A DNA stretch of 64,000 nucleotides, taken from an uncultured Acidobacteriota bacterium. GTDB taxonomy: Bacteria; Acidobacteriota; Thermoanaerobaculia; UBA5066; Gp7-AA6. The stretch lies in NCBI GenBank assembly GCA_963776755.1, contig CAVZNW010000002.1, positions 163,741 through 227,740 on the forward strand, written 5' to 3'. Below the pieces are notes generated by a model that was not told the DNA's origin, searched no databases, and worked only from the letters and a program-made list of their open reading frames with translations. Below, in pieces: positions 7,195-58,874 of the stretch (position 1 is its first letter; each line of letters opens with the position of its first letter). The position numbers and the translations under genes were made by a program.

Positions 7195-7218
7195 CGGTCG
7201 GCGGCTCGCTGTGAATTC

Positions 7219-8866: not shown

Positions 8867-8956
8867 GGAGTTCTCCTCTACTGGTACGCGGATTCCGGGA
8901 CGCTTTCAGGTCAGCCGACAGGCCCGACCCGTGAACAACGGGTGGAGAAACGAGAG

Positions 8957-14429: not shown

Positions 14430-14762
14430 ATGGCCGCGGAACGAAGCGATTTGCTGCAGGGAACTCTCGACGTCCTGGTCCTGAAGACGCTCGGCAACGG
14501 GCCGATGCACGGCTGGGGGATCGCCGCCCGCATCCAGCAGCTTTCCCAGGACGTGCTGGAGGTCAACCAGGGCTCGCTGTATCCGGCCCTCCACCGGCTG
14601 GAGCAGAAGGGCTGGATCTCGGCCGAGTGGGGCAGCTCCGAGAACAACCGCCGAGCCCGGTTCTACACGCTGACCCGGTCCGGACGCCGGCAGCTCGCCG
14701 ACGAGACCGAGAGCTGGGAGCGCTTTGCCGCCGCGGTCGGGCGAGTGCTCGCGGCGACGTAG
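14430..14762 (+). CDS. PadR-family transcriptional regulator (Acidobacterial PadR type)
   Basis: GGAGGG ribosome-binding site before the start. MAAERSDLLQGTLDVLVLKTLGNGPMHGWGIAARIQQLSQDVLEVNQGSLYPALHRLEQKGWISAEWG...RFYTLTRSGRRQL is a canonical PadR winged helix. Confidence 0.9.
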   Translation: MAAERSDLLQGTLDVLVLKTLGNGPMHGWGIAARIQQLSQDVLEVNQGSLYPALHRLEQKGWISAEWGSSENNRRARFYTLTRSGRRQLADETESWERFAAAVGRVLAAT

Positions 14763-17438: not shown

Positions 17439-17452
17439 CACCGGAGGCCTTC

Positions 17453-26996: not shown

Positions 26997-28353
26997 TCAT
27001 TGTCCGTGTTTCTCGAGACGGCGGTAGAGGGCGCTGCGCGAGAGGCCGAGGGCCCTGGCCGCCTGGCTGACGTTGCCGCCGAAGCGGTCCATGGCCTTGC
27101 GCACGAGGAGGCTCTCGACTTCCTCGAGGGAGAGGTCCTCCAGGCGCGTCGCATCGCCGCCGCGCTTCAAGCCCAGGTCCCCGGCGCGGATCGCTCCGCC
27201 CGCGGACATGAGGACGGCGCGCTCGATCGCGTGGTCGAGCTCGCGCACGTTGCCCGGCCAGGGGTGCGCCAGGAGCGCCTCCATCGCGGCGGGCTCGAAG
27301 CCCGCGACCTTCTTGCGGTAGCGCTCGGCGTGGCTCTGCAGGAACTGCCGGGCGAGCAGCGGGATGTCGTCACGCCGCTCGGTCAGCGACGGCACGTGGA
27401 TCTCGATCGTGTTGAGGCGGAAGAGCAGGTCCTGGCGGAACCTCCCGGCCGCGACTTCGGCGGCCAGGTTCGCGTTGGTGGCCGAGAGGATCCGGACGTC
27501 GCAGCGCCGGGTCCTCGACGAGCCGACGCGCTCGAACTCGCCCGTCTCGAGGACGCGCAGCAGCTTGCCCTGCTGGGACATGGGCACGTTGCCGATCTCG
27601 TCGAGAAAGAGCGTGCCGCCGTCGGCGAGCTCGAAGCGTCCGACCCGATCCGACCGCGCGTCGGTGAAGGCCCCCTTGACGTGGCCGAAGAGCTCGCTCT
27701 CGAAGACGCCTTCGGAGATCCCGCCGGCGTTCAGGGTCAGGAAGGGGCGCGAGGCCCGGGGCGAGGCGGCGTGGAGCGCGCGGGCGACGAGCGTCTTGCC
27801 GGTGCCGTTGTCGCCGGTGATGAGCACGTTGGCGTCCGACGGGCCGACCCGGGCGATGACGTCGAGGACCGGGCGCATCGCGGGGGAGGCGGCGACGAAG
27901 GCGGGGGCGCCTTCGTGCCGGAGGATGCGGTTCTCCGCCTCCAGGCGCTGGCCCGACCCGCAGGGCCTGCCCGAGCGCGATCTGCGTGCGCAGCGTCGTC
28001 AGCAGCCGCGCGTTGTCCCACGGCTTCTGCACGAAGTCGCGGGCGCCGTGGCGCATCGCCTCGACGGCGAGGTCGACGGTGCCCCAGGCGGTCATGACGA
28101 TCACCGGAAGCGTCGGGTCGATCTCCTGGATCTTCGCCAGCAGGTCGAGGCCCTCCCGGCCCGAGGTCGTGTCGCGGGTGTAGTTCAGGTCGATCAGGGC
28201 GGCGTCGCGTTCCTTCGCCTCCACGGCCGCGAGGACTCCCGACGGCGAGCTCGCGGTCTCGCACTCGAGGCCCTCGCCCTTCAACAGCAGGCGCAGGGCC
28301 TCCAGAACGTCGCGCTGGTCGTCGGCGATCAGGACGCGCGGCGGGCGGTTCAC
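26997..28353 (-). CDS. Sigma-54-dependent response regulator (NtrC family: REC, AAA+, Fis-type HTH). One apparent frameshift near 27955.
   Basis: REC domain: VLIADDQRDVLEAL...DAALIDLNY...VIVMTAWG. AAA+ domain: ITGDNGTGKTLVARALH, GHVKGAFTDA (GAFTGA-type sigma-54 contact loop), FRQDLLFRLN. HTH: NVSQAARALGLSRSALYRRL. The GTG start overlaps the ACT gene stop (GTGA). Confidence 0.85.
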
Positions 28354-39101: not shown

Positions 39102-39776
39102 TCAGTCGTTCACGATCCAGCCGTCGCGCAGCCGGACGACGCGGTTCCCGAACGTGGCGTTCTCCTCGGAGTGCGTCACCTGGACGATGGTCGTGCCCTC
39201 GTCGTTCAGCTTCTTGAAGAGCCGCATGATTTCGCGGCCCTGGTCCGAGTGGAGGTTGCCGGTCGGCTCGTCGGCCAGGAGCAGCTTCGGCTTCGCGATG
39301 AGCGCCCGCGCCACGCCGACGAGCTGCTGCTGTCCGCCGGAGAGCTGGTTGGGGAAGAGGTCCTTCTTGCCGACGATCTGGAAGCGGTCGAGCGTGTCGG
39401 CCACGATCGAGGCGCGCTCCGAGCCCTTCACGTTGCGGTAGGAGAGCGGGATGTCGAGGTTCTCGGCGACCGTGAGGTTGTCGAGCAGGTGGTACTGCTG
39501 GAAGACGAAGCCGACGTACTTCTTGTTGAGCTCGATGCGCTCGCGGGGCTTAAGCGAATGGACCTCGTGCTCGAGCAGGCGGTATCCGCCGCTCCAGTCG
39601 TGGTCGAGCATCCCGAGGATCGAGAGCAGCGTCGACTTGCCGGCGCCCGAGGGGCCCATGATCGTCACGAACTCGCCCTGGGCGATCGAGAGGTCGATGC
39701 GGCGCAGCAGGAAGGTCTGGCCGGCGCGGGTCGCGACGGCTTTCTCGACGCTGGTCAGCTGGATCATGTTGTTCAT
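39102..39776 (-). CDS. ABC transporter ATP-binding protein, MacB/LolD type (second ATPase, embedded mid-array)
   Basis: 224 aa. Walker A GPSGAGKST, Q-loop VGFVFQQYHLL, signature LSGGQQQL, Walker B LLLADEPTGNLH, H-loop VTHS. The ATG overlaps the upstream permease stop (ATGA 39773-39776). Confidence 0.9.
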   Translation of the reverse strand: MNNMIQLTSVEKAVATRAGQTFLLRRIDLSIAQGEFVTIMGPSGAGKSTLLSILGMLDHDWSGGYRLLEHEVHSLKPRERIELNKKYVGFVFQQYHLLDNLTVAENLDIPLSYRNVKGSERASIVADTLDRFQIVGKKDLFPNQLSGGQQQLVGVARALIAKPKLLLADEPTGNLHSDQGREIMRLFKKLNDEGTTIVQVTHSEENATFGNRVVRLRDGWIVND

Positions 39777-42217
39777 TCGCCTTTCAACACTTCGCTGGGG
39801 GAGATGCGGGCGGCGCGCCGTGCCGGCAGGCCGCTCGCCAGGAACATCACGGCCCCGAGGGCCAGGGCGGCCGCCGCGAGGGTCGCGGGGTCGGTCGCGG
39901 CGACGCCGAAGAGGACGCGCGAGAGAAGCGGGGCCAGAGCGAGCGCGCCGGCGAGTCCCAGGGCGATTCCTCCGAGCGCCAGCCGCGCCGTCTCCGCGAG
40001 CACGGTGCCGAGCACCTGCGGCGACCGGGCGCCGAGCGCGATCCGGATGCCGAGCTCGCGGCGGCGCAGCCCGACGACGTAGGAAAGCAGCCCGTAGACG
40101 CCGACCATCGCGAGACCCACGGCGAGACCTCCGAAGGTCAGCATGAGCTGCATGTTCAAGCGCGAGGGCGCCAGGGCCTCGGCGTAGACGCCCGTCATCG
40201 TCGAAACGCCCTGGATCGGAAGGGCCGGGTCCAGGTCGTGGAACGCCCTGCGCAGGTCCGGCGCGGACGCGGAGCCCCGGACGACGAGCTGCATGTCCTC
40301 GATCGGGAACTGGCGGACCGAGAGGTAGTAGGCGGGCGCGGTCTCCTTGTCGAGGCCCAGGAACTTCTCGTCGGCCGCGATGCCGACGATCTCGAAGCGG
40401 GTCGGCAGGCCCTCGCCCCACCAGGAGACGCCGTCGCCGGACTCCAGGAAGCGCCCCAGGGCGCGGCCGTCCCGGAAGTTCGCGCGGGCGAAGGCCCGGT
40501 TGACGATCGCGACCGCCGGGTGCCGCGCGTCATCGGTAGGGGAGAAGTCGCGCCCCTCGAGAAGCGACACGCCGACCGAGCGAAAGTAGCCGTCGCTGAC
40601 GGCTCGAAACCAGGACGGAGACCGTTCGCCGCCGGGATCGCCGGTGCCCGGCTCGGCCTCGCCGCCGCCGATCCACTGGGCCTCGAGCGGATGGTTGTAG
40701 GCCAGGGCGGCCGAGGAGACTCCGGGCAGGGCCCGCGCTCTCGAGAGCAGAGCGTCCTCGAAGCGGGCGACGTCGCCCCAGGTCTCGTAGCGCGAGCGCG
40801 GCAGGGAAAATCGCGCGACCGTGACGTTGGCGGCGCGGAACCCCGGGTCGACCCGAGAGAGCCGCAGGAAGCTCTGCGTCAGCAGCAGCGCGCCCGAGGC
40901 GAGCAGCACGGCGACCGCGGTTTCGCCGAGAACCAGCAGGCGCAGGGAGCGTCGCGCTCCGCGAGTGCCGGTCGCGCCCCGGCCCACCTCGGACAGCCCG
41001 CGCGCGGCGCCCCGGCGCGCCGCGGTCAGCGCCGGCACGAGGCCGGAGAGCACGCCCACCACCAGCGAGACGGCGACCGCGAAGGCCAGGACCCCCTGGT
41101 GGACCCGCACCTGCCCGAGCCGCGGGACGTCCGGGGGCACCAGGGTGACGAGCAGCGGCAGCCCCCAGTACGTGAGGAGGACTCCCAGGGCGCCGGCCGC
41201 CGCGGAGAGAACGAGCGCCTCGACCAGGAATTGGGCGGCGATCCGTCCGCGTCCGGCGCCGAGGGCCGAGCGGACCGCGATTTCCCGCCCGCGGGCCTCG
41301 GCCCGCGCGAGCTGGAGGCTCGCCACGTTGGCGCAGCCGATCGCGAGCACGAAGATCACCGCTCCGAAGAGGAGCCAGAGAGCGGGCCGCATCGCACCCT
41401 GCGTCTCGAGATCGAGCGGCGCAAGCCGCGTGTCCGCGCCCCGGTTGCTCGAGTCCTCGGCCGCGAGTCTCCGGGCGAGCGCGGTCATCTCCTGCCGGGC
41501 CGCCGCCAGGGTCACGCCCGGCTTCAAGCGCCCGAGGACGCCGAGCACGTAGCTGCGGCCCCGCGGCGCTCCTGCGCCCTCGAGCGCGGCGGGAGCGAAG
41601 AACTCCGGCCCTCCTGGAGCGAAGGCGATGCGGCCGATCGTCAGGGCCGCGGTCGGGTAAGGTGCGGGCGGCATCACGCCGACGATGGTCCGGGGCGTGC
41701 CCTCGAGTGTCACCGTGCGGCCGAGGATTCCGGGGTCCGCGCCGAAGCGCGAGACCCAGAGCTCGTGCCCGAGAAGGACGACCGGCGCGGCGCCCGATTT
41801 CGCTTCCTCCGGCCGGAAGGCGCGGCCGAGGACTGGAAGAACGCCGAGAAGATCGAAGTATTCGGGCGTGACCCGGCTGCCATGGAGCGAGACCGGCTCG
41901 CCCTCGCCCGTCAGCGTCCATGTCGCGCCCTGGAAGGCGGCGAGGCTCTCGAAGGAGCGGGCATGCTCGCGCCACGCGCGATAGGAGGTCGGTGCCGGGC
42001 GCCAGAGCCGGCCGTCCGGCCCGACTTCCCAGAGGACCGTCAGCCGTTCGGGTTCGCGGTAGGGGAGCGGCGCGAGAACGACCGTGTGGAGGAGCGAGAA
42101 GATGGTCGTCGTCGCGGCGATTCCGAGGGCGAGGGTCCCGATCGCCGCGGCCGAGAAGCCAGGGCTCTTTCGGAGCGACCGAAGCGTGTAGCGAATCTGG
42201 CGGGCGAGGCTGTTCAT
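39773..42217 (-). CDS. ADOP-type duplicated FtsX/MacB-like permease (array member 7)
   Basis: 814 aa. MNSLARQIRYTLRSLRKSPGF. AIGCANVASLQLARAEARGREIAVRSALGA and VGVYGLLSYVVGLRRRELGIRIALGA. C-terminus LPARRAARISPSEVLKGE. Confidence 0.9.
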   Translation of the reverse strand: MNSLARQIRYTLRSLRKSPGFSAAAIGTLALGIAATTTIFSLLHTVVLAPLPYREPERLTVLWEVGPDGRLWRPAPTSYRAWREHARSFESLAAFQGATWTLTGEGEPVSLHGSRVTPEYFDLLGVLPVLGRAFRPEEAKSGAAPVVLLGHELWVSRFGADPGILGRTVTLEGTPRTIVGVMPPAPYPTAALTIGRIAFAPGGPEFFAPAALEGAGAPRGRSYVLGVLGRLKPGVTLAAARQEMTALARRLAAEDSSNRGADTRLAPLDLETQGAMRPALWLLFGAVIFVLAIGCANVASLQLARAEARGREIAVRSALGAGRGRIAAQFLVEALVLSAAAGALGVLLTYWGLPLLVTLVPPDVPRLGQVRVHQGVLAFAVAVSLVVGVLSGLVPALTAARRGAARGLSEVGRGATGTRGARRSLRLLVLGETAVAVLLASGALLLTQSFLRLSRVDPGFRAANVTVARFSLPRSRYETWGDVARFEDALLSRARALPGVSSAALAYNHPLEAQWIGGGEAEPGTGDPGGERSPSWFRAVSDGYFRSVGVSLLEGRDFSPTDDARHPAVAIVNRAFARANFRDGRALGRFLESGDGVSWWGEGLPTRFEIVGIAADEKFLGLDKETAPAYYLSVRQFPIEDMQLVVRGSASAPDLRRAFHDLDPALPIQGVSTMTGVYAEALAPSRLNMQLMLTFGGLAVGLAMVGVYGLLSYVVGLRRRELGIRIALGARSPQVLGTVLAETARLALGGIALGLAGALALAPLLSRVLFGVAATDPATLAAAALALGAVMFLASGLPARRAARISPSEVLKGE

Positions 42218-42222
42218 CCCGC

Positions 42223-44640: not shown

Positions 44641-44648
44641 CGCAGACC

Positions 44649-47063: not shown

Positions 47064-47074
47064 GCCGGGTCCTC

Positions 47075-49504
47075 CTACTCCGCCCTCAGGGACGTCATGG
47101 GATCGATGCGCGAGGCGCGGCGCGCCGGAAGCCAGGTCGCCGCGAGGGCGATCGCCGCGACGACCGCGGCCACGCCGGCGAAGGTCACCGGGTCGGTGGA
47201 AGACACGCCGGGGAGCTGGCTCGAGAGGAGCCTCGACACCGCGAACGCGCCGGCGAGGCCGAGGGCGACGCCGGCCACCGCCAGGCGCATCCCCTCCTCG
47301 AGGAAGCTCCTCAGGATCTCGGCCGGGCTCGCCCCGAGAGCCATGCGCAGGCCGATCTCGCGCCGCCGCTCGGCGGCGGCCTGGGCCGCCACACCGTAGA
47401 GGCCGACTCCGGCGATCGACGCGGCCAGGAGGCCGAGGAGTCCGAGCAGGTTCGAGCCGATGCGTTGCGCGATCAGCGCCTCGAGGATGTGCTCCTCCAT
47501 CGTCTGCGCTTCGCCGATCGGGAGGTTGGGATCGAGCCGCTTGAGGATCCCCCGCACGCTCGGAAGCAGCGACCCCGGATCGCCCGAGGATCGGAGGAGC
47601 AGGACGAGCGACGGCTTGTAGACCTGAGCGACGGGAACGTAGGCGTAGGCCATCGGGCGCTCGGAGAAACTCTGGTACTTGCCCGTGCGGGCCACGCCGA
47701 CGATGGTCCGCGCCTCGCCCAGAAACGTGAACGTCGATCCGAGAGCGTCACGGTTCGGGAAGTACCGACGGGCGAACGTCTCGTTGACGATGGCGACTCC
47801 GGGGGCGTCCTTGTGGTCGGAGGGTTCGAACTCGCGCCCGCGCAGGCCGATCTCGAGCGTCGAGAAGTAGCCGGGCGCAACGGTGTTGTACTGGACCATC
47901 AGCTCTTCGCCGGGGGCTGGCGTGTATCCGTCGAGCTCGAACGAGCTGGAGCTCGATCCCGAAAAGCCCAGGGGCACGCGGCGCGCCACCGATGCCGATG
48001 CGACTCCGGGCAGTGCGCGGGCCTGCTCGGTGAGGGCGTCGAACAGGGTGCGCCCCCGCTCCGGGGAGTAGCCCAGCGGGAAGACGTCGATTCCGACGAT
48101 CAGGACGCTCTTCGCGCCGAACCCCGGGTCCAGGCGCTGCGCGGCCGCGAAGCTCCGCAGAAAGAGCCCGGCCGCAACGAGGAGAATCAGCGAGAGCGCC
48201 ACCTGGGCCGCCACCAGGCCGCGCCTCAGGCGGGCCCGCCGGCGGGCTCCGCCGATCGATCCGGACCCTCCGACGAGATCCGCGGCAATCGACGAGCGCG
48301 AGGCGCGCAACGCCGGAACGAGCCCGAAGAGGAGGCTCGAGGCGGCCGCCGCGGCGAACGCGAAGGCCAGGACGCGGCCGTCCACGGCGAGATCGAGGCG
48401 GATGGGGCGACCGGACGGCGGGATGAACGACATGAGGAGCCCGGACGTCCAGAACGTCAGAAGGACGGCGGCGAGTCCCCCGAGGGCGGCGAGCAGGAGA
48501 CTTTCGGTCAAAAGCTGACGGACGAGCCTCCCGCGCCCGGCGCCGAGCGCCAGCCGCACCGCGACCTCGCGCCGCCGGCCGAACGCGCGCGAGAGCAGGA
48601 GCGCGGAGACGTTGGCGCACGCCACGAGCAGGACGAGCCCGACGAGCCCGAGAAGCGCCAGCAGGACGGGACGCAGGACGCGCGGGCCTCCCCACGGGCT
48701 CTTCGACAGGGGAGCGACGAGGAAGCCGTGACCCTTGTACGAGCTCGACTCGCGCGCGATCCGGGACGCCTCTGCTGCGAGGACCTGGTTCGCGCGCGCG
48801 TCGTCGACTCCCGGCGCCAGGCGCGCCACGCACATGAGCCAGCGATCGCCGCGCTGGCCGAGCCGGTCGTCGCCCGGTTCCAGGCGCGGCGTCTGCGCGA
48901 GGGGCGCCCACAGGTCGACCCCGAGGCCGAGGAGGCTTCCGAGAAACGCGGCCGGCGCCACGCCGACGACGGTGAAGGGCGTGCCGTTGACCGGGATGCT
49001 CTTGCCGACGATCGCCGGGTCCGACCCGAAGTCGCGGGACCAGAGGGACTCGGACAGCACGACGACGGGCGGCGAGCCGGGCCCCGCGTCCTCCTCCGGT
49101 CGGAAGAAGCGCCCCAACCGCGGGCGGACTCCGAGCACCTCGAAGGAGTTGCCGGAGACGAGAGACCCCCAGAGCCTCTGCGGCGCCTCTCCGGTCCGCG
49201 CGCCGAGAGCGACCGCGATCGCGCGCTGGGCCACGAGGCCGGAAAAGACGTCGGTTCGTGCGGCGAGCTCAAGGTAGACCGGGTAGGACAGGCTCACCGA
49301 GTCCTCGGACGGGCTCGTGCCGTAGAGCACCCGGAGGCGGTCGGGCTGCGCGGCCCCGGGGATCGGGTCGAGCAGGACCGCGTTCACCCACGAGAAGACG
49401 GTCGTGTTGGCGCCGACGCCGAGCGCCAGCGTCAGGACGGCGGCCGCGGTCCATCCCGGGCTGCGGGCGAGGCTGCGCAGGGCGTACTTCAGATCGTTGA
49501 TCAT
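47075..49504 (-). CDS. ADOP-type duplicated FtsX/MacB-like permease (array member 4)
   Basis: 809 aa. MINDLKYALRSLARSPGW. LVACANVSALLLSRAFGRRREVAVRLALGA and VGLYGVAAQAAAERRREIGLRMALGA. C-terminus LPARRASRIDPMTSLRAE. ATGA overlap at 49501-49504. Confidence 0.9.
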   Translation of the reverse strand: MINDLKYALRSLARSPGWTAAAVLTLALGVGANTTVFSWVNAVLLDPIPGAAQPDRLRVLYGTSPSEDSVSLSYPVYLELAARTDVFSGLVAQRAIAVALGARTGEAPQRLWGSLVSGNSFEVLGVRPRLGRFFRPEEDAGPGSPPVVVLSESLWSRDFGSDPAIVGKSIPVNGTPFTVVGVAPAAFLGSLLGLGVDLWAPLAQTPRLEPGDDRLGQRGDRWLMCVARLAPGVDDARANQVLAAEASRIARESSSYKGHGFLVAPLSKSPWGGPRVLRPVLLALLGLVGLVLLVACANVSALLLSRAFGRRREVAVRLALGAGRGRLVRQLLTESLLLAALGGLAAVLLTFWTSGLLMSFIPPSGRPIRLDLAVDGRVLAFAFAAAAASSLLFGLVPALRASRSSIAADLVGGSGSIGGARRRARLRRGLVAAQVALSLILLVAAGLFLRSFAAAQRLDPGFGAKSVLIVGIDVFPLGYSPERGRTLFDALTEQARALPGVASASVARRVPLGFSGSSSSSFELDGYTPAPGEELMVQYNTVAPGYFSTLEIGLRGREFEPSDHKDAPGVAIVNETFARRYFPNRDALGSTFTFLGEARTIVGVARTGKYQSFSERPMAYAYVPVAQVYKPSLVLLLRSSGDPGSLLPSVRGILKRLDPNLPIGEAQTMEEHILEALIAQRIGSNLLGLLGLLAASIAGVGLYGVAAQAAAERRREIGLRMALGASPAEILRSFLEEGMRLAVAGVALGLAGAFAVSRLLSSQLPGVSSTDPVTFAGVAAVVAAIALAATWLPARRASRIDPMTSLRAE

Positions 49505-51933
49505 TCGCTCCTCAGGGCGGTCATGGGATCGATCCGGGACGCTCGGCGCGCCGGCAGGTACGCGGCGCCGAGGGCGCAGAGGAGAAGCAGCGCCGTCACG
49601 GCGAAGAAGGTCACCGGGTCCGAGGGAGAGATGCCGAACAGGAATCCCCGCAGGAGACGCGCGACCACGGCGCCGAGAGCGACGCCCACAACGAGACCAA
49701 TGGCGACGGGGCGGGCGCTCTGCGCGACGACGAGGGCGCGCACGTCGGAGGACCGCGCGCCGAGGGCCATGCGGATCCCGATCTCGCGCGTGCGCCCCGC
49801 CACGGCGTACGAGATCACGGCGTAGATGCCGATGGCCGCGAGGGCGAGCGCGAGGAGCCCGAAGACGCCGAGAAACGCCGAGCCGAGGCGCTGGGGCACG
49901 AGCTGGCCGCCGATCTCCGCCTCGTAGGTCCCGGTGGCGGCGACGGGAAGGCTCGGATCGAGCCTCCGGATCTCCGCCCGCACGATCGAGGCGACGTCCG
50001 TCCGCGCGGACTGGCCGCGGGCGACGAGAGTCACGAGGCCCGCGTTCTCCGCGCCCTGCGCCAGAGGGAAGTAGACCTGGGGAACGGGGCCGTCGCGAAG
50101 CGACCCGGTGCGGAAGTTCCGTGCGACGCCGACGACCGTCCGCTGCGCGCCCGCGATGTCGATGCGGTGCCCGAGCGCGCTTTCGCCGGGCCAGACGCGC
50201 CGGGCCATGGCTTCATTGACGACGGCGACCATGTTCGATCCCGCCCGATCGAGGCGGTCGTCGAACTCGCGGCCCTCCACCATGGGGACTTCCATCGTCC
50301 GGAAGAAGTCCGCGCCAAGGAGGTTGATCTCGGCCTCTTCCGGCCGATCCGGGGGCGCCGGCCGGCCCGGAACCGAGAACGATTCCGTCCACTGGCCTCC
50401 GGACAGCGGAACGAGCCCCGCCCAGCTCGCCGCGCGCACGCCGGGCGAGGCGGCGACGCGCTCGCGCAGGTCCCGAAAGAAGGCCTCCGCTCTGGCGCCG
50501 TCGTAGCGCTGGAGCCCGGGATCCACGGACGCGAGCGTGAGCCCGCGCGGCTCGAAGCCGAGGTCGGTCGCGAGCGCGCGCTGGAGGCTTCGGGCGAGCA
50601 GTCCCGCAGCGACGAGCAGCAGCAGACACAGCGAAATCTGGGCGGCCACCAGCACGCCGCGGGCGGCCGACCGCGGCGAGGCCGTCGAGGCGGAGGCCTT
50701 GAGGACCGAACCCACGGAACGGCCGGACGCCTGCAGCGCCGGGAGGAGGCCGAAGGCGAGGCCGGTCGCGACCGAGAGCAGGAAGGCGAAGCCGAGGGCG
50801 CGCAGGTCGAGCGCCGGCGCAAAGACCGCCAGCGAGAAATCGCCGGGCAGCGGCATCTTCACCACGAAGGCGAGCGACCAGGTCGCGACGAGCAGTCCCG
50901 CGGCCCCGCCCAGGACGGAGAGCGTGACGCTCTCGGTCAGGAGCTGGTGAACGAGGCGCGACCGGCTCGCGCCGATCGCCTGGCGGACCGCGATCTCCTT
51001 CCGGCGCGCGGCCGCCCGCGCCAGGAGCAGGTTGGCGAGGTTGGCGCACGCGATCGCGAGCGACACCGCGACGGCGCCGACGAGGAGCGCCAGGAAGGAC
51101 ACGGGGTCGCCTTCCTGCCCGAAGCCGGCGGCCGCCCGAAGCGTCGGACGGAGAGTGAAATGCGAATCGGCGCCGAGGTCGTCCGGGAATGCGGCCGCCT
51201 CCTGGCGGGTGGCGACTTCGACGGCCGCCTGCGCCTGCGGGATCGAGACGCCGGGCTCGAGGCGTCCGACAGCGGAGAGCCAGCCCCAGCCTCGCCTCTG
51301 AAGGTCGAGTCGCTGAAACTGTCCGGTCGCCAGCCGCGGCCAGACGCCGATCGAGACCCACAGGTCCGGGGCCGCCCCGAAGGCGGTTCCGCGAAACCCC
51401 TCGGGCGCCACGCCGATCACCGTGAACGGAGCGCCGTTCAACCGGATGGCCTTCCCGACGATCGCGGGGTCCGAGCCGAACCGGCTCCTCCACAGGCGTG
51501 CGGCGAGCACGACGTTGGCCTCGCCCGACTCTTCGTCGGCCGGCGCGAGGAGACGGCCGGATGCCGGCCGTGCGCCGAGCAGGTCGAAGTAGTTTCCGGA
51601 AACGATGCCGCCGCGGATCCTCTCGGCGACGGCGCCGACCGACAGGCTCATCGATCGCTCCCGCCATGCCGCGAGGCCGTCGAGGCTTCCCGCCGTGGCG
51701 TCGCGCAGCGAGCGGTACGACGGGTAGGAAAGGGTCGGTCCGGACAGGTCCACGAGCGCCTCGGGCCGCGCCACGCCCGGGAGCGGATGCAGGACCACCG
51801 CGTCGACGAGGCTGAAGATCGCCGTGTTCGCGCCGATGCCGAGCGCCAGGATCAGGACGGCCGCGGCCGTGAAGCCGGGGCTGCGGCCGAGCGTCCGGAG
51901 GGCGTAGCGGAGGTCCCGGAAGAATGTGCTCAT
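49501..51933 (-). CDS. ADOP-type duplicated FtsX/MacB-like permease (array member 3)
   Basis: Start taken at ATG 51933 (MSTFFRDLRYALRTLGRSPGF); the longer ORF start at 52059 would overlap the upstream gene. AIACANLANLLLARAAARRKEIAVRQAIGA and [27 protein letters not shown]-terminus LPARRASRIDPMTALRSE. Confidence 0.9.
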   Translation of the reverse strand: MSTFFRDLRYALRTLGRSPGFTAAAVLILALGIGANTAIFSLVDAVVLHPLPGVARPEALVDLSGPTLSYPSYRSLRDATAGSLDGLAAWRERSMSLSVGAVAERIRGGIVSGNYFDLLGARPASGRLLAPADEESGEANVVLAARLWRSRFGSDPAIVGKAIRLNGAPFTVIGVAPEGFRGTAFGAAPDLWVSIGVWPRLATGQFQRLDLQRRGWGWLSAVGRLEPGVSIPQAQAAVEVATRQEAAAFPDDLGADSHFTLRPTLRAAAGFGQEGDPVSFLALLVGAVAVSLAIACANLANLLLARAAARRKEIAVRQAIGASRSRLVHQLLTESVTLSVLGGAAGLLVATWSLAFVVKMPLPGDFSLAVFAPALDLRALGFAFLLSVATGLAFGLLPALQASGRSVGSVLKASASTASPRSAARGVLVAAQISLCLLLLVAAGLLARSLQRALATDLGFEPRGLTLASVDPGLQRYDGARAEAFFRDLRERVAASPGVRAASWAGLVPLSGGQWTESFSVPGRPAPPDRPEEAEINLLGADFFRTMEVPMVEGREFDDRLDRAGSNMVAVVNEAMARRVWPGESALGHRIDIAGAQRTVVGVARNFRTGSLRDGPVPQVYFPLAQGAENAGLVTLVARGQSARTDVASIVRAEIRRLDPSLPVAATGTYEAEIGGQLVPQRLGSAFLGVFGLLALALAAIGIYAVISYAVAGRTREIGIRMALGARSSDVRALVVAQSARPVAIGLVVGVALGAVVARLLRGFLFGISPSDPVTFFAVTALLLLCALGAAYLPARRASRIDPMTALRSE

Positions 51934-51940
51934 GGCGTCC

Positions 51941-54419
51941 TCACTCGTTCCGCAGGGCGATGGCCGGATCGATGCGCGTGGCCCGGCGCGCAGGCAGCCA
52001 GCAGGCCACCGCCGCCACGGCGAAAAGAAGGAGCGAAACGGCCCCGTACGTTCCTGCATCGCTCGCGCCCACGCCGAAGAGCAGGCTCGCGAGCAACCGC
52101 GACAGCGCGAAGGCCGCGCCGAGACCGGCGGCGACGCCGATACCCGCCAGCGTCAGGCCGCGCTGGAGCACGCCGCGGAGGATGTCGCCCGGCCTCGCGC
52201 CGAGAGCCATGCGCAGGCCGATCTCGCGCGTGCGGGCGGAGACCGTCTCCGCCACGAGCCCGTAGATTCCGACGGACGCGAGAAAGAGCGCGATGCCGGC
52301 GAGCAGCCCCAGGAGGCCCGCGCCGAAGCGCTCGCGCGAGAAAGTCCGGGCGACGCGCCGTTCCATCGTTGCGACGTCGAAGACGGGCATGTTCGGCGCG
52401 AGCGCCTTGATCTCCCGGCGAATCGCGGGCGCCAGCGCCGCCGGGTCCCCGGAGGTGCGGACGAAGAGCGTCGCCCACTTCAACCCCCCCTGGAAGGACG
52501 GGTAGTAGAGGTCGAGCCCCTGCGGCTCCCCGGGGCGCCCGTAGAGCACGTCGCCGGCAACGCCGACCACTTCGGCGGTCTGGCCGTCGGCGAAGAAGGA
52601 GGTCGTGGCCGCCAGCCGCCGCCCGATCGGGTCCTGGCCGGGCCAGAGGCGGCGCGCCGTCGTCTCGGACACGACGACGACCTTCGGCGAGCCCTCGCGA
52701 TCCTCGGGACGGAAGGCGCGACCCCGGCGGATCGGGATCGAGAGCGCGCGGAAGTAGTCCGGGCTCACGTCGTGGATCCCGATCTGCACCGCGCCCCGAT
52801 CGACGCCGAGCTGCCGGTCGTCCACCTGGCGCACGACGGCGACCATGTTGCGCGAGGAGACGGGGGCAGTCCGGCCGGTCGAGGCCGCGACGACGCCCGG
52901 CACCGCCGCGAGGCGCTCGAGCAGCGCCCGGCGGAAGACGATCGCCTGCGAGCGATCCCCCTCGAGCACTCCGGTCGGGTCGAACTTCATGGTCAGGACG
53001 CCGTCGGGCCGGAAGCCGGACTGATAGCCGGAGAGGCGCGCGAGGCTGCGCGCGAGGAGGCCGGCGCCCACGAGGAGCACGAGCGCGAGCGCGACCTGCA
53101 CGGGGACGAGCAGTCCGCGCGCGGACAGGCGCCGGCGTCCGCTCCCGGCGACGGGAGCCGCCCTCCTTCAGGACCACGGCGAGATCTCCGCGCGAGGCCT
53201 GGAGCGCCGGGGCCATGCCGAAGAGGAGTCCCGTCGCGAGCGAGAGGGCGAGCGCGAAGGCGAGGACGCGCCCGTCGAGATCGATGGCGGCAAAACGGAA
53301 GAGGAAGGAAGGATCGCCGACGCCCGACAGGCGTTCGAGCCGGGACAGCGCCTCGACGCCCCAGAGGGACAGAAGGACGCCGGCCACGCCTCCGGCGACG
53401 GCGAGGACGACGCTCTCGGTCAGCAGCTGGCGCACGATGCGCCGGCGGCCGGCGCCGATGGCCAGGCGGATCGCGACCTCGCGGCGGCGCGAGCCCGCGC
53501 GGGCGAGCAGCAGCGCGGCGACGTTGGCGCACGCGATGAGGAGCACGAAGGTCACGGCGCCGAAGAGGACGAGGACCGAGCGCCGCAGCGCCGGGTCCAC
53601 GCGGCTGTCGTTCAACGGTGCCGCCGTGGCGCTCCAGACCGCCCCGGAGACCTCCATCGGATGCTCGTCGGCGACCTGCTTGCCGACGACCGCCATCTCG
53701 GCCTCGGCCGTCGCGGCGGCGACCCCGGCCCGCCGCCGGGCGACGACGTTGTGCCAGTGATTCCCGTCCTCCGTGAGGATCTCGGGGTAGATGAAGGTCG
53801 GCGCCGTCGCCATCGAGACCCAGATCTGGGCCTCTCCGCTCAAGCCGGCGAACCGCTCCGGCAGCACGCCGACGACCGTCAATGGCACGCGGTTGACCTG
53901 GATCACTCGGCCGAGGATCGACGGGGCGCCCCCGAAGCGGACCTTCCAGAGGCCGTGCGAGATCAGCGCGACGTTCGAGCCCGCAGACCCGTCCTCCTCG
54001 GGCGCGAACGTGCGCCCGAGCTCCGCGGAGACGCCGAGCACCGGGAAGTACGCGGCGGAGACGATCTCTCCCGCCAGCCGCTCGGGCTCGGCGACGCCCG
54101 TGAGGTTCAGGTCGAGCGTCGAGTGGGCCGCGACGGCCTCGAAGGACCGCGCGTGGCGCCGCAGGCTCTCGAACTTGGGATACGACCAGGCGAAGGGCTC
54201 GGCGGGGGTGTTGCTCTCCTGGTGCGTGATCGAAACCGTCATGAGGGCGTCCGAGTCGCGGTAGGGCAGCGGGCGCAGCACCGCGGCGTCGAGGATGGAG
54301 AAGATCGTCGTCACCGTGCCGATGCCGAGCGCGAGCGTGAGGATCGCCACGGCCGCGAAGCCCGGGTTGCGCGCGAGCCAGCGGAAGGCGTACCGGAGAT
54401 CCTGGGCGAAAGTCGTCAT
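51941..54419 (-). CDS. ADOP-type duplicated FtsX/MacB-like permease (array member 2). One apparent +1 frameshift near 53155-53165, between the two halves.
   Basis: MTTFAQDLRYAFRWLARNPGF...[30 protein letters not shown]...DLAVVLKEGG, then junk in that frame. The other frame continues AAPVAGSGRRRLSARGLLVPVQVALALVLLVGAGLL...VGIYGLVAETVSARTREIGLRMALGA...LPARRATRIDPAIALRNE. The span is 3n+1. Confidence 0.85.
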
Positions 54420-54428
54420 GGCGCTCCT

Positions 54429-56855
54429 TCAGTCGTTGCGCAAGACCAGGGCCGGATCGATTCGCGCGGCGCGTCGCGCCGGCAGGGCGCTCGCCGCGAG
54501 CGCGACGGCGGCGAGGAGGGCCGACACCCCGGCGAGCGTCGTGACGTCGAGCGGCGTGACGCCGAAGAGCATGCTCGAGAGCAGCCGGGTGATCGCCGAA
54601 GCGAAGACCAGCCCGATCGCGACGCCGATCCCGGCCAGCCGGGTCCCCCGGCCCACGAACAGCGAGACGATGTCGCGGCGGGCTGCTCCGAGCGCGATGC
54701 GGATGCCGATCTCCCGGCGGCGCTCGCCGACCGCGAAGGCGACGACGCCGTAGAGCCCGACGGCCGCGAGCAGAAGCGCGAGCGCCCCGAAGCCGGCCAG
54801 CAGAAGCGTTCCCTGCCGGCGGCCGGCGGTGGTGCGGCGCAACGCCTCCTCGAGGGTCTCCGCCTGGAAGAGCGGCATCGTCGGGTCGAGGCTGCGGGCG
54901 GCGGCCCGCACCGCGCCCGAGAGCTCCTTCCCGCCGGAGCCCCGAACGAGAAGGATGTTCTCGTTCAGGTGCGCGCCCTGAGCCAGCGCGAAGTACGCGA
55001 ACGGCCGCGCCGGTTCCGTGAGGCTCAGATACTTGCCGTCCTGGGTGACCCCGACCACCTCGAAGCCCTCGCCGGGGCGATCGACGGTCGCGAAGCGCCG
55101 GCCGAGCGGGCTGACGCCGGGCCAGAAGCGCCGGGCGAGCGTCTCGTTGACGACCGCGACGGCCGGCGCGCCCGAGCGATCCGCCGGCGTGAAGTCGCGT
55201 CCCGCGACGAGCGGGATGCCGAGCGTCGCGAAGTAGCCGGGAGAGACCGTGGTGAAGAAGATCTGCTCGCGCGCTTCGGCCCCCCCGCCCTCGGGTGCGA
55301 AGTCGTCGGCGACGGCGCGGTTGGAGAGCGGCAGGAGCTCGGTGAGGGCGGCGGCGCGCACGCCGGGCAGGCTCTTCGCCCGCTCGAGCATCGCCTCGCG
55401 AAAACCCTGGGCGCGCTCGGGCGGGTATCCCTGCGTCACCGGGTCGAACGACAGCGTCACGACGTCTCCCGCCGATGCGCGGTCGAATCCCGCGGGGACC
55501 GCGGCCGCCTTGGCGAGACTCCGCAGGAGCAGGCCGCCGGCGGCGAGCAGCACGAGCGAGAGCGCGACCTGGACGACCACGAGGGAGCCCTGCAGTCGCT
55601 GCCCGGGTCGCCCGGAGCCGCTCGCATCGCCCTTCAGGGCGGCAAAGACGTCGGGGCGAGCCGCGCTCCAGGCCGGGGCGAGGCCGAAGAGGATCCCGGT
55701 CGCGAGCGCGACGGCGGCTCCGTAGGCGAGCAGTCGCCAGTCCACGACCGGCTGGAGCAGCTGCGGGACGTCGAATCGGGAAAGCAGCAGGTCGAGAGCC
55801 CACGACGACAGGAGCAGGCCCGCGGCCGTGCCCAGACCGGCGAGCAGCACGCTCTCGGTCAGGAGCTGGCGAAGAAGGCGCCAGCGGGATGCGCCGATGG
55901 CGACGCGGATTCCCATTTCCCGCCGTCGACGCGCGGCCCGACCGAGCAGGAGATTGGCGACGTTGGCCGAGGCGATCAGCAGCACGAGGCCGGTCGCCGC
56001 GAGCGCCAGCCCCGCCATCGGCAGGATCTCGTACATGTGCCCCGGCGGAACCCAGCCCCGCGGTGTCTCGACCGAAGCCGTCGTGTTCCGCAGGTCGGCC
56101 GGCCGGAGGGAGGCATTGGCTGCCGCCGTCGCCTTCACGGCGGCTTCGGCCTGCGCAGGGGAGACCCCGGGCGCCAGGCGGGCGAGGACGCGGAAGCGGG
56201 CCGACGCGCGGGACGCGAGGCTGCCGGCGCGGTCCGTGCCCGAGAGCCAGGTCTCCAGCGGAAGAAAAACGTCCGGGGGCGAATCGAGGTCGAGGCCGGC
56301 GAATCCCGCCGGTGCGACGCCGAGAACCGTGAAGGGGCGGCCGCTGACGGTCACAGACCGGCCGACCGCGCCGGGATCGGCGCCGAAGCGCCGGCGCCAC
56401 AGCCCGGCCGATATCACGGCGACGGGGCGGCGAGCGCGGTCGTCCTCGGCGGTGAAGAAGGTCCCGGCGGCGGGTACGAGTCCCAGGACCCGGAAGTAGT
56501 CTCCGCCGGCGATCTGAGCCTCGAGGCGGTCCGTCGCGTCGGGGGTGGCGACGTGCACCGGGACGTTGTCGACCGCGGCGACTCCGGCGAACACGTCGGC
56601 ATGTTTCCCGTAGTCCACGACGTCCGGGTACGAGACGCGGGCGGCTCGACCGTCCTCGATGTGCGTGATCCAGAGGAGCCGTGCGGGATCGGCCACCCCC
56701 GGCATCGGCCGGAGAATCATCGCGTTCAGCATCGAGAAGATCGCGGCATTCGCGCCGATGCCGAGCGCGAGCGTCAGGACGGCGACGGCCGTGAAGCCGG
56801 GGTTGCGGGCGATCCCGCGCAGGGCGTAGCGGAGATCCTGCGTGAGCGTCCGCAT
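54429..56855 (-). CDS. ADOP-type duplicated FtsX/MacB-like permease (array member 1)
   Basis: 808 aa. MRTLTQDLRYALRGIARNPGF. LIASANVANLLLGRAARRRREMGIRVAIGA and VGLYGVVAFAVGERRREIGIRIALGA. C-terminus LPARRAARIDPALVLRND. The ATG shares one nt with the ATPase stop (TGATG at 56853-56857). Confidence 0.9.
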   Translation of the reverse strand: MRTLTQDLRYALRGIARNPGFTAVAVLTLALGIGANAAIFSMLNAMILRPMPGVADPARLLWITHIEDGRAARVSYPDVVDYGKHADVFAGVAAVDNVPVHVATPDATDRLEAQIAGGDYFRVLGLVPAAGTFFTAEDDRARRPVAVISAGLWRRRFGADPGAVGRSVTVSGRPFTVLGVAPAGFAGLDLDSPPDVFLPLETWLSGTDRAGSLASRASARFRVLARLAPGVSPAQAEAAVKATAAANASLRPADLRNTTASVETPRGWVPPGHMYEILPMAGLALAATGLVLLIASANVANLLLGRAARRRREMGIRVAIGASRWRLLRQLLTESVLLAGLGTAAGLLLSSWALDLLLSRFDVPQLLQPVVDWRLLAYGAAVALATGILFGLAPAWSAARPDVFAALKGDASGSGRPGQRLQGSLVVVQVALSLVLLAAGGLLLRSLAKAAAVPAGFDRASAGDVVTLSFDPVTQGYPPERAQGFREAMLERAKSLPGVRAAALTELLPLSNRAVADDFAPEGGGAEAREQIFFTTVSPGYFATLGIPLVAGRDFTPADRSGAPAVAVVNETLARRFWPGVSPLGRRFATVDRPGEGFEVVGVTQDGKYLSLTEPARPFAYFALAQGAHLNENILLVRGSGGKELSGAVRAAARSLDPTMPLFQAETLEEALRRTTAGRRQGTLLLAGFGALALLLAAVGLYGVVAFAVGERRREIGIRIALGAARRDIVSLFVGRGTRLAGIGVAIGLVFASAITRLLSSMLFGVTPLDVTTLAGVSALLAAVALAASALPARRAARIDPALVLRND

Positions 56856-57604
56856 CAGTTCATCCGGTAGCCGCTTTCCTTGAGCTCTTCCTCGCTGTGC
56901 GCCCGCTCCTCGCCCTTCTCTTCTTCCACCACGCGGCCGTCGAAGAGGTGGATCGTGCGTCCCGCGTGCTTGGCGAAGCGGGGGTCGTGCGTGACCATGC
57001 AGATCGTCGCGCCGGCGCGGTGCAGGTCCTGGAGCAGGTTCATGACCGCCTCGCCGTTGACCGAGTCGAGGTTGCCCGTGGGCTCGTCGGCGAGGAGGAT
57101 GAGGGGCGAGCCCGCGATGGCGCGCGCCACGGCGACGCGCTGCTGCTGACCGCCCGAGAGCTGCGAGGGGAAGTGCTTCATGCGGTGCGCCATGCCGACC
57201 TTCTCGAGGGACTCCTGCACGCGCTTCTTGCGCTCGTGCGAGGGCATGCCCCGGTAGGTCAGCGGCAGCTCGACGTTCTCGTAGACCGAGAGATCGCCGA
57301 TCAGGTTGAACGACTGGAAGATGAAGCCGATCTCCCGGTTGCGGATGCGCGCCCGCTCGGAGAGCGTCAGCGACTCCGCGGGCTTGCCGTTCAAGGAGTA
57401 CTTGCCCTCGGTCGGCGAGTCGAGCAGGCCGAGCAGCGACAGCAGCGTCGACTTGCCGCAGCCCGACGGCCCGGCGATCGACACGTACTCGCCGTGCGCG
57501 ATCTCCAGGTGCACGCCCGAGAGCGCGTGCGTTTCGACTTCGTCGGTGAAGAAGACCTTCGTGACGCCGTCGAGCTTGATGACCGGATGTCCGTTGGAGC
57601 TCAT
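56855..57604 (-). CDS. ABC transporter ATP-binding protein, MacB/LolD type (first ATPase)
   Basis: 249 aa. Walker A GPSGCGKST, Q-loop IGFIFQSFNL, signature LSGGQQQR, Walker B/D-loop ILLADEPTGNLD, H-loop VTHD. Acidic C-terminal tail of about 25 aa. GGGGA ribosome-binding site in the 10-nt gap after the MFP gene. Confidence 0.9.
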   Translation of the reverse strand: MSSNGHPVIKLDGVTKVFFTDEVETHALSGVHLEIAHGEYVSIAGPSGCGKSTLLSLLGLLDSPTEGKYSLNGKPAESLTLSERARIRNREIGFIFQSFNLIGDLSVYENVELPLTYRGMPSHERKKRVQESLEKVGMAHRMKHFPSQLSGGQQQRVAVARAIAGSPLILLADEPTGNLDSVNGEAVMNLLQDLHRAGATICMVTHDPRFAKHAGRTIHLFDGRVVEEEKGEERAHSEEELKESGYRMN

Positions 57605-57614
57605 GCCTGTCCCC

Positions 57615-58874
57615 CTACTTCAAACGTACGCGGTCGTGAGCGTCCCATGCGCTCATGTCCGAAAGAATCACCTTGTCGCCCGGCTTGAGACCCTCGAGGA
57701 TCTCGACCGTGTTGACCGAGCTCTTGCCGAGCTTGACCTTGACCCGCACGGCCTCGTCGCCGTCCTCCTCGAGCCGGAAGAGCCCGACCAGGCTCTTCTC
57801 CTGGCCGAACGCCGGCCGGCCGACGTAGAGGACGTCCTTCAGGCGGTCGAGCTCGATCGTCCCGTCGACCGAGAGGTCCGGGCGCGCGCCCTGGGGCAGC
57901 TCGCCCTCGAGCGCGACGTCGACCGTGACCGTCCCGTTCTGCGAGGACGGGTCGACGCGCGAGACCTTGCCGGGGACGATCCCGTTGCGCGTGTCGATCG
58001 AGGCCGGCTGGCCGATCGCGATGTCCTTGGCCTGGGTCTCGGCGATCTTCAGCTGCGCCTTGAGCTTGTTGGGCTGCACCACCTTGGCGAGCATCGTTCC
58101 CGGCGTGACGCGCTGGCCGACCTGGATCGGGATCTCCTGCAGGACGCCCGGAATCCCGGCGCGGACGTTGAGGGCGTCCATCTGCGAGCGCCGGAGGTCC
58201 GCCTGGACCTTGAGCTGCTGGAGGTGCGCCTGGGCCGCCTCGATCTGCGCCTTCGCGGAGTCTTCCGCGATCGCCATGCGTTCCTTTTCGAGGGCGTTGC
58301 GCGTCTTGAGCTCGTCGGCGCGCACCTGCGAGAGCTTGAGCGTCAGGGAGGCGACGATGCCTTCCTTGTAGAGGCCCTCGTTGGTCTGCGACTGGAGCTC
58401 CGCCTGGTGGTAGTCCGACTCCACCGTGGCCGCCGCGGCCTTCTGGTCGAGGGTCTCCCGCATCACCCGGATGCGGGTGTTCGCCATCTCGGCCTGCCCG
58501 GCTTTCAGGGCCTGCTCGGCGTCGAGCGCGTCTCTTTGAAGTTCGGGGTTGGACATCTCGAGGATCACCGTATCCGGCTGCACGACGGCGCCGGGCTCGA
58601 GAAGGAGACGCTCGACGCGGCCGTCGGTTGCGGAGGAAAGCACGCGGATCCCGGAGGACTCGACGACGAGCGATCCCGGACCCCGCACCTGGCGCAGCAT
58701 CGGCCCGCGCTTGACCGTGTCCATCCAGACGGTCGACTTCTCGACCGTCGGCGCGGCCGGCTTCAGTTTCGAAAGTCCCAGGGTGATCAGCAGGATCGCC
58801 GCGGCCCCGGCGGCCGCCATCACGATCCGCTTCTTGCGCTTCTTCTCGGAGATGTCCTCGCGGATGATGTCCAC
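57615..58874 (-). CDS. Periplasmic adaptor / membrane-fusion protein (HlyD/MacA-like)
   Basis: 419 aa. N-terminal KKRKKR followed by TM segment AAAGAAAILLITLGL. A long coiled-coil segment, then beta-barrel/lipoyl-like motifs (...VRAGIPGVLQEIPIQVGQRVTPGTMLAKVV...GKVSRVDPSSQNGTVTVDV...). GTG start at 58874; the internal ATG at 58820 is an alternative. Confidence 0.85.
   Translation of the reverse strand: MDIIREDISEKKRKKRIVMAAAGAAAILLITLGLSKLKPAAPTVEKSTVWMDTVKRGPMLRQVRGPGSLVVESSGIRVLSSATDGRVERLLLEPGAVVQPDTVILEMSNPELQRDALDAEQALKAGQAEMANTRIRVMRETLDQKAAAATVESDYHQAELQSQTNEGLYKEGIVASLTLKLSQVRADELKTRNALEKERMAIAEDSAKAQIEAAQAHLQQLKVQADLRRSQMDALNVRAGIPGVLQEIPIQVGQRVTPGTMLAKVVQPNKLKAQLKIAETQAKDIAIGQPASIDTRNGIVPGKVSRVDPSSQNGTVTVDVALEGELPQGARPDLSVDGTIELDRLKDVLYVGRPAFGQEKSLVGLFRLEEDGDEAVRVKVKLGKSSVNTVEILEGLKPGDKVILSDMSAWDAHDRVRLK

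Follow-up and report, generated by a model that had tools for sequence, protein, structure and literature searches.

Duplicated permeases of Acidobacteriota in an operon with two distinct ABC ATPases and one adaptor: a candidate MacAB-like system with alternative permeases

MacAB-TolC (E. coli, A. baumannii, A. actinomycetemcomitans; PDB entries 5nik, 5lil and 5gko) is the ATP-binding cassette (ABC) system of Type VII that the system described here appears to work most like. The latter is encoded by a minus-strand operon of 14 genes, 29.7 kb in extent (29181-58874), in a 64,000-nucleotide stretch, referred to as the window, of contig CAVZNW010000002.1 (assembly GCA_963776755.1) from an uncultured bacterium of the Acidobacteriota. 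Its genes specify, in order, a periplasmic adaptor of the membrane-fusion protein (MFP) class, an ABC ATPase (ATPase-1), seven acidobacterial duplicated orphan permeases (ADOPs), a second ATPase (ATPase-2) and four further ADOPs. The likeness to MacAB-TolC lies in the MacB fold and coupling motif of each ADOP half, in ATPases that are closest to the nucleotide-binding domains (NBDs) of MacB, Spr0694 and MJ0796, and in a long-hairpin adaptor that heads the operon, with tolC lying outside it. In contrast to MacB, with its N-terminally fused NBD, the NBD here is a separate polypeptide and it is the permease halves that are fused, into a chain with eight transmembrane (TM) helices; two NBD genes and eleven alternative permeases accompany the one adaptor. 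The equivalog model for MacB, a homodimer with fused NBD, yields only 72-126 bits (NF007826, cut-off 966). That low score, the unfused NBD and the fused pseudo-dimeric permease make the system MacB-like, not MacB.

Among Type VII systems of solved structure, YbbAP(-TesA) of E. coli (9ge6-9ge8; PMC12646458) is the only one in which the two halves of the permease, with two periplasmic domains, form a single chain that binds two separately encoded NBDs. Two YbbA subunits attach to each YbbP, with one coupling helix per half (PMC12646458), and so furnish a precedent, in a solved structure, for a single fused permease that requires two NBDs. In YbbP and BceB the fusion includes an additional pair of linking helices (TM5/6 in YbbP), for ten TM helices in all (PMC12646458, PMC5985334), whereas the ADOPs have eight, with a short cytoplasmic linker, and are only 15% identical. 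The direct fusion of four plus four TM helices is listed in neither of these papers, and its combination with two distinct NBDs is missing from the published surveys of Type VII architecture (PMC5985334). YbbAP differs further in having a YbbA homodimer, no adaptor, a hydrolase partner (TesA) and one permease per operon, and the ATPases described here score 204 and 158 bits against the YbbA equivalog (NF007879, cut-off 336). The darobactin exporter DarBCD (NF038007/8/10) likewise combines a permease of duplicated type (DarB, a 777-position profile) with an adaptor (DarC) and an ATPase (DarD). DarD is the best NCBIfam match of both ATPases (249 and 247 bits, cut-off 375), DarC matches the adaptor (67 bits, cut-off 450) and DarB one ADOP (27.8 bits, cut-off 700). 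All of these scores fall below the equivalog cut-offs, and DarBCD has just one permease and one ATPase, in a biosynthetic cluster for a peptide made by ribosomes and modified after translation (RiPP); there is no such cluster here. LolCDE, also of Type VII, has a separate NBD and two non-identical permease halves, LolC and LolE, to which the ADOP halves match structurally, but these halves are separate genes, LolD is a homodimer, there is no adaptor and the system is a dedicated single-copy lipoprotein extractor. One energiser serving many membrane components is known from the group II energy-coupling factor (ECF) transporters, which share EcfAA'T (EcfA/A' being a heterodimer of two related ATPases), and from the multitask ATPases MsiK/MsmK. 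The analogy is functional only: these are importers of unrelated fold, in which sharing has been demonstrated, whereas it is proposed here.

The ten intact ADOPs of the operon score 816-965 bits against TIGR03434 (curated cut-off 622.3 bits), as full-length members of the family, and the internal duplication appears in the Pfam architecture MacB_PCD-FtsX-MacB_PCD-FtsX (assigned to the same or nearly identical proteins in public contigs). Hydropathy and an AlphaFold2 model of ADOP 8 (predicted local distance difference test score, pLDDT, 82; predicted template-modelling score 0.75) agree on two alpha/beta domains in the periplasm, eight TM helices and a short linker on the cytoplasmic side. A Foldseek comparison of that model with the PDB gives YbbAP (9ge6) as its top and only full-length match (E 4e-19, TM-score 0.47); the matches that follow, to MacB, Spr0695, LolC/E, HrtB and BceB, each extend over one half. 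By sequence, MacB (E 4e-16) and Spr0695 are the only solved relatives found (PDB sequence search). Sequence, Foldseek matches and motifs concur in giving each half the MacB-type fold of four TM helices and a periplasmic domain, with its own coupling helix, and the coupling motif R-x-R-E-x-A/G-V/I-R-x-A-L-G-A is invariant in both halves of all 12 ADOPs of the window (the eleven of the array and a PadR-headed singleton). A first-pass annotation, made from the letters alone, had described each ADOP as a fused pseudo-heterodimer of two MacB-like halves; Pfam architecture, model and Foldseek matches all bear this out. As for 'orphan', in the TIGR03434 description it denotes a permease neither fused nor adjacent to an ABC ATP-binding gene. 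That feature holds for the singleton and not for the array, which has two PF00005-type ATPases inside its operon; since it is descriptive and lies outside the hidden Markov model, membership in TIGR03434 stands.

The window has a G+C content of 72% and long spurious open reading frames (ORFs) are plentiful; genes were therefore placed by third-position G+C, by tblastn with one permease and by family models. The first-pass annotation had recognized a MacAB-like operon with two ATPases and one adaptor, ATPase-2 coming after the seventh permease. Every gene that it named is where it was said to be and of the family proposed, but its interval (39102-58874) covers only the upstream two thirds of an operon that runs on to 29181. 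All 13 internal junctions measure between -4 and +15 nt, and Shine-Dalgarno-like GGAG/GAGG lies upstream of each gene start, which fits a single transcript with translational coupling. The ATPase genes and neighbouring ADOP genes overlap in their start and stop codons, and the operon contains no permease other than ADOPs. (A search for Shine-Dalgarno sites of greater strength in front of the ATPase and adaptor genes, which might offset the numerical excess of permeases, was uninformative, the sites being alike in all the genes.) Within the codons for the conserved C-terminus of the ADOPs (…A-L-R-S-E) lies GAGGAG, the Shine-Dalgarno sequence of the next gene, as at the stops at 49504, 34188 and 47075, so that protein conservation and translational coupling are entangled. 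The array is not an artefact of assembly, since the same layout is found in three independent assemblies (loci L001, L002 and L163).

How common the linkage of ADOPs to ATPases might be was assessed in two surveys. In one, an alignment of the window ADOPs was searched against one genome per GTDB species, yielding 80 loci, each taken with flanks of at most 10 kb, which were queried by tblastn with the window ATPases, the adaptor and one ADOP; the other, of metagenome contigs, was seeded with ATPase-2. A same-strand ATPase of type 1 or 2 is present at 17 of the 80 ADOP loci, and its distribution is uneven. Half of the 28 arrays (loci with at least three same-strand ADOPs) contain an ATPase with 59-78% identity to either ATPase-1 or ATPase-2, seven of these 14 have an adaptor as well (50-58% identity), and most of the remaining 14 run off the edge of the locus or contig. 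Such an ATPase is found at only two of the 42 singletons. A PadR gene, in contrast, lies directly upstream of 15 of the 42 singletons and of four of the 28 arrays; the small arrays that are fully visible and have no ATPase (L009, L072, L073, also L082) are PadR-headed in the first three cases. In the ATPase-2-seeded survey, an ADOP lies less than 1 kb from 20 of 27 ATPase-2-type genes, and ATPase-1-type genes adjoin an ADOP or ATPase-2 in 21 cases out of 25, with an MFP gene immediately upstream in 17 of the 25. With M for the adaptor, 1 and 2 for the ATPases and P for an ADOP, clusters take the form M-1-P(n)-2, often with ATPase-2 last (L092, L099, L138, L023), M-1-2-P(n) (L095), M-P-1-2-P(n) (L010) or M-1-P-2-PPP (L163), that of the window being M-1-P7-2-P4. 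These patterns recur in Acidobacteriota, in Opitutaceae/Opitutus and in many metagenome contigs, and the ADOP family and the full operon type are also found in Gemmatimonadota and others.

There are thus two genomic modes of ADOPs: singletons or small clusters that are PadR-headed and have no ATPase nearby, and large arrays headed by adaptor and ATPase. The window holds both. Its PadR-headed singleton also carries a permease-prefix domain (NF038403) that the array ADOPs lack, and the PadR-headed singletons point to a separately regulated ADOP class. The premise of the first-pass annotation, that ADOPs are essentially never adjacent to an ATPase, survives for singletons and fails for arrays; its corollary, that the layout in the window is exceptional, falls with the finding that array ADOPs commonly lie beside ATPase and MFP genes. 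The layout is common rather than exceptional. A full-text literature search found no paper analysing the linkage of ADOPs to ATPases; a passing remark of 2014 places a Psychroflexus ADOP cluster among transporters 'with ATP-binding regions' (PMC3914696).

The two ATPases are 43% identical and belong to separate orthologue groups. ATPase-1 has canonical motifs throughout (GPSGCGKST, LSGGQQQRV, ADEPTGNLDS, VTHD); its NCBIfam matches after DarD are the MacB NBD, LolD and FtsE, likewise below their equivalog cut-offs, and its orthologues are 69-80% identical (Acidobacteriota, Verrucomicrobiota including Opitutaceae, metagenome contigs). ATPase-2, with orthologues that are 61-73% identical (Acidobacteriota, Opitutaceae, metagenome contigs), has NLHS as its D-loop and LSGGQQQLV as its signature region. 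Both groups keep Walker A, the Q-loop, the Walker B glutamate and the H-loop, which are intact in the ATPase-2 of the window, too. All ten aligned ATPase-2 sequences (from the window and nine other loci) share two substitutions, Asp to His in the D-loop and Arg to Leu or Ile after LSGGQQQ, at positions where the solved NBDs of MacB and Spr0694 have Asp and Arg. The number of ADOPs ahead of ATPase-2 is 0, 1, 3 or 7 in different loci, so that no fixed set of permeases downstream goes with it. Every fully visible cluster of ADOPs that has ATPase-2 has ATPase-1 as well, which is suggestive of a heterodimer, and the two genes adjoin in L010, L028, L095 and L136. By analogy with ABC heterodimers in general, D-loop asymmetry would fit a 1+2 heterodimer on an asymmetric permease. 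Judged from these sequences and their placement, an ATPase-1/ATPase-2 heterodimer is more likely than two copies of either. The first-pass annotation had proposed just that, two copies of one ATPase or the other. Against it stand the distinctness and conservation of the two orthologue groups, the changes specific to ATPase-2 at the dimer interface and the variable position of its gene.

Two observations on related ATPases may be added. In L033 (6052-8046), an ATPase-1 orthologue reads in frame, with no intervening stop, into the N-half of the next ADOP, giving a MacB-like NBD-permease fusion with the remainder of the ADOP as a separate piece; this is either an error in a metagenome-assembled genome (MAG) or a genuine fusion. 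In L101, L104, L105, L110, L113 and L122, ATPases 54-62% identical to ATPase-1/2 are flanked by tandem permeases with ~20-26% identity to ADOP; by their sequences they would seem to be multi-permease, MacB-like arrays of a sister class that lies outside TIGR03434.

The adaptor scores 109.4 bits against TIGR01730 (RND_mfp; cut-off 94.9) and matches Pfam HlyD_3 and HlyD_D23. It has an N-terminal TM helix, its gene lies 10 nt upstream of that of ATPase-1, and its database homologues number more than 8000, those with names at 74-76% identity coming from MAGs of Thermoanaerobaculia/Acidobacteriota, the phylum to which the window would on this evidence probably be assigned. In its AlphaFold2 model, helices 110-170 and 176-235, of ~60 residues each and with pLDDT above 90, form the alpha-hairpin of a cognate membrane-fusion adaptor. 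Two helices of about 60 residues would span ~90 Å, and hairpins of this kind are used by adaptors such as MacA and EmrA to reach TolC-like channels. The length of the hairpin leads one to expect an outer-membrane factor (OMF) encoded elsewhere. None was found nearby: the ORFs upstream of the adaptor at six related loci (L006, L008, L010, L043, L054 and L068), where gene context is otherwise not conserved, include no OMF gene, and the earlier statement that the window lacks a TolC-like gene is borne out by Pfam scans of nearly all of the window's coding segments. The lack is unremarkable, being normal for macAB-type operons. The macAB genes of E. coli also have no tolC next to them.

The reading that we favour, with moderate confidence, is that of a MacAB-like efflux or extraction system of the envelope (Type VII ABC), with fused 8-TM ADOPs as alternatives that share the ATPases and the long-hairpin adaptor. 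At the level of genes (their content, the operon structure, domain architecture, the two groups of ATPase orthologues and conserved synteny) the case is solid and the pattern widespread; complex formation, ATPase heterodimers, transport direction, substrates and the involvement of an OMF we infer from it. Each ADOP would be a complete transmembrane module, two MacB-like halves (each with four TM helices and a periplasmic domain) in one chain, to which two cytoplasmic NBDs would be supplied in trans, most likely as an ATPase-1/ATPase-2 heterodimer matching the asymmetric permease. Movement driven by ATP would be passed on to the periplasmic domains (mechanotransmission), and substrate, whether periplasmic or drawn from the inner membrane's outer leaflet, would be pushed into the tube formed by the adaptor, which would dock to a TolC-like channel encoded elsewhere. 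The eleven ADOPs might then be substrate-diversified alternatives competing for one conserved engine and adaptor. The ratio of 11 permeases to 2 ATPases to 1 adaptor, already given by the first-pass annotation, is that of the gene content, and sharing of ATPases and adaptor, which that annotation had proposed, remains its simplest reading, with the correction that the two ATPases are not interchangeable copies. Stronger hints of sharing in trans come from two other sources. One is a contrast of rates: between phyla, identity is ~75% for ATPase-1, 50-58% for the adaptor and ~40% for the ADOPs. The other is a permease-less module, adaptor-ATPase-1-ATPase-2, at 8032-10696 of L136 (JADMIO010897303.1), where the 10 kb to each side are free of permease genes. 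(Divergently upstream of the L136 module lie genes for a sigma-54 response regulator and a histidine kinase.)

Several considerations weigh against this reading or limit it. Mean pairwise identity among the 12 ADOPs of the window is 0.62 in the N-terminus and TM1 and 0.54-0.57 in the two coupling regions, compared with 0.33 in the periplasmic domains; stronger conservation on the cytoplasmic side is what shared cytoplasmic partners would lead one to expect, but is typical of all MacB-type families, and is for that reason weak evidence for sharing. A single adaptor would have to fit eleven divergent periplasmic domains, and its model, with a mean pLDDT of 61, is reliable only in the hairpin. 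No OEP/TolC family turns up in the window when nearly all of its coding segments are scanned with Pfam, an absence that is well supported if not absolute, a few ORFs being left without any family match. Small, complete MFP-ATPase-1-ADOP clusters without ATPase-2 exist (L151; also L043 and L033), so that ATPase-1 probably can work as a homodimer and the heterodimer is not obligatory. Both surveys are confined to 10-kb flanks and biased towards sequences resembling the queries.

Clusters with ATPase-1 alone also lend plausibility to a different arrangement, in which the array comprises two independent sets of pumps, with ATPase-1 homodimers serving the seven ADOPs that come after it, ATPase-2 homodimers serving the other four, and no heterodimer. 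Both ATPases retain Walker A, the Q-loop, the Walker B glutamate and the H-loop and, in the window, four ADOPs do follow ATPase-2 as a block. Nevertheless, we consider it unlikely. ATPase-2 is the last gene, with nothing downstream for it to serve, in L092, L099, L138, L023, L096, L097 and L148, it stands beside ATPase-1 ahead of all permeases in L095, L136, L010 and L028, its constant accompaniment by ATPase-1 in complete clusters would go unexplained, and homodimeric MacB-type NBDs have the canonical residues at both of the sites where ATPase-2 is invariantly substituted. The nature of the work done is a separate matter. The best full-length structural match of an ADOP is to YbbAP, an extractor of lipids and hydrophobic compounds with two ATPases per permease (PMC12646458), members of the MacB family have very diverse roles other than efflux (PMC5985334), and neither the window nor the neighbourhood of the six related operons offers an OMF gene. 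The ADOPs could accordingly be extractors or mechanotransducers of the kind of YbbAP-TesA, LolCDE and FtsEX, pulling hydrophobic molecules or proteins from the inner membrane or activating periplasmic partners, with an adaptor that is independent of TolC as in the Gram-positive YknXYZ. This is quite unlikely in our estimation: the operon of the window begins with an adaptor gene, as do many related clusters, a hairpin with ~60 residues per helix is what adaptors use to reach an OMF, Pfam scans of the window find no gene for a TesA-like hydrolase or a LolA-like chaperone with the array, and the eight TM helices of an ADOP are not the ten of YbbP. It could, finally, be supposed that adjacency is meaningless, the ADOPs being true ATP-independent orphans (sensors, or driven by the proton-motive force) and the ATPases and adaptor serving another permease. 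Most singletons and some fully visible small arrays do have no ATPase within 10 kb, many of them with a PadR gene at their head instead, and it is to this that the family owes the name 'orphan'. But the operon has no other permease to be served, its synteny is conserved across phyla down to the overlap of ATPase and ADOP start and stop codons, and the invariance of MacB-type coupling-helix motifs in both halves of every ADOP of the window would be left without a reason; we regard this explanation as very improbable.

The favoured reading, of alternative permeases sharing ATPases and an adaptor, could be extended beyond the operon. ATPase-1 and ATPase-2, as one slowly evolving heterodimer, might constitute with the adaptor a universal, trans-acting engine for all ADOPs of a genome, including those dispersed, PadR-regulated 'orphans' that are switched on individually. 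We are doubtful of this, while noting what would follow. It would be the first Type VII ABC system to run on two different NBDs and a direct-fusion 8-TM permease, and a modular, substrate-diversified efflux platform, the exporter counterpart of the group II ECF transporters. If the engine is shared in trans, this would help to explain how a soil bacterium can maintain dozens of envelope pumps at the cost of two ATPase genes. With tens of copies per genome, the ADOPs make up one of the largest families of paralogues in Acidobacteriota and soil phyla related to them; as late as 2024 they were annotated as of 'unknown function' (PMC11573002). The association of ADOP arrays with a conserved adaptor and two conserved groups of ATPase orthologues provides a concrete and testable mechanism for a family named for lacking an ATPase: the claimed rarity disappears, and a large uncharacterised family of transporters gains a candidate engine.

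Concerning the history of the array, the ADOPs of the window are 35-46% identical to one another and 40-51% identical to those of other phyla; the identity comparison shows no sign of recent tandem duplication among them. Paralogues that are no closer to one another than to ADOPs of other phyla indicate an array that is old and diversified, not the product of recent amplification. As for the duplication within each ADOP, the N- and C-halves of one protein have no significant BLAST similarity except for 25 residues at the coupling helix (E 0.05), implying that it is ancient. Positional orthology of ADOPs between arrays was considered and rejected, the paralogues being nearly equidistant, with close counterparts only in L001, L002 and L163 and no conserved order. 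Array content nonetheless differs even among relatives that are 86-89% identical. L001, 89% identical to the window in DNA over the adaptor, ATPase-1 and the first two ADOPs, has an extra ADOP (15668-18097) between its counterparts of ADOPs 2 and 3 (window 49501-54419), and L002 has no DNA-level match to the window beyond the second ADOP. Relative to the 89%-identical L001, ADOP 2 has one extra base near 53155, and its tblastn match divides between two frames, that of 54419 for the N-half and that of an ORF at 51941-53101 for the C-half. The frameshift falls in the cytoplasmic linker between the halves, and the C-half is still open, with normal codon bias; ADOP 2 may be split into two half-permeases, it may be a young pseudogene, or this may be a sequencing error.

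Table 1. Positions of the operon genes and of the PadR-headed singleton in the window
Feature	Position	Strand	Family evidence or remark
Membrane-fusion (periplasmic adaptor) protein, 419 aa, first operon gene	57615-58874	-	TIGR01730, Pfam HlyD_3, HlyD_D23
ATPase-1, 249 aa, MacB/LolD-type NBD	56855-57604	-	NCBIfam
ADOP 1, 808 aa	54429-56855	-	TIGR03434 835.8 bits; 92% identical to L001 counterpart
ADOP 2, +1 frameshift near 53155	51930-54419	-	TIGR03434 458 bits, N-half only in single frame
ADOP 3, 810 aa	49501-51933	-	TIGR03434 855.3 bits
ADOP 4, 809 aa	47075-49504	-	TIGR03434 878 bits
ADOP 5, 804 aa	44649-47063	-	TIGR03434 903.2 bits
ADOP 6, 805 aa	42223-44640	-	TIGR03434 965.2 bits
ADOP 7, 814 aa	39773-42217	-	TIGR03434 816.2 bits
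ATPase-2, 224 aa, second distinct ABC NBD	39102-39776	-	NCBIfam, alignment
ADOP 8, 809 aa, modelled with AlphaFold2	36657-39086	-	TIGR03434 920.4 bits
ADOP 9, 819 aa	34188-36647	-	TIGR03434 871.5 bits
ADOP 10, 834 aa	31684-34188	-	TIGR03434 913.6 bits; weak DarB match (27.8 bits)
ADOP 11, 829 aa, last array gene	29181-31670	-	TIGR03434 961 bits
PadR regulator	14454-14762	+	TIGR03433 padR_acidobact 158.9 bits (cut-off 101.8)
Singleton (twelfth) ADOP, N-terminal permease-prefix domain	14775-17438	+	TIGR03434 920.4 bits; NF038403 perm_prefix_1 51 bits

Beyond the array, an msrB (SelR) gene lies 26 nt downstream of ADOP 11 and a sigma-54 activator gene at 26997-27998, ~1.2 kb past the array end. 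At 7187-10251 of the minus strand, the coding-frame signal alternates between two frames, and Pfam and NCBIfam give no match for several long ORFs; further frameshifts are possible there. The plus strand at 64-6940 carries TamB-like (DUF748/TamB) and POTRA/Omp85 genes, a pair of the TAM type for outer-membrane assembly, which marks the organism as a diderm.

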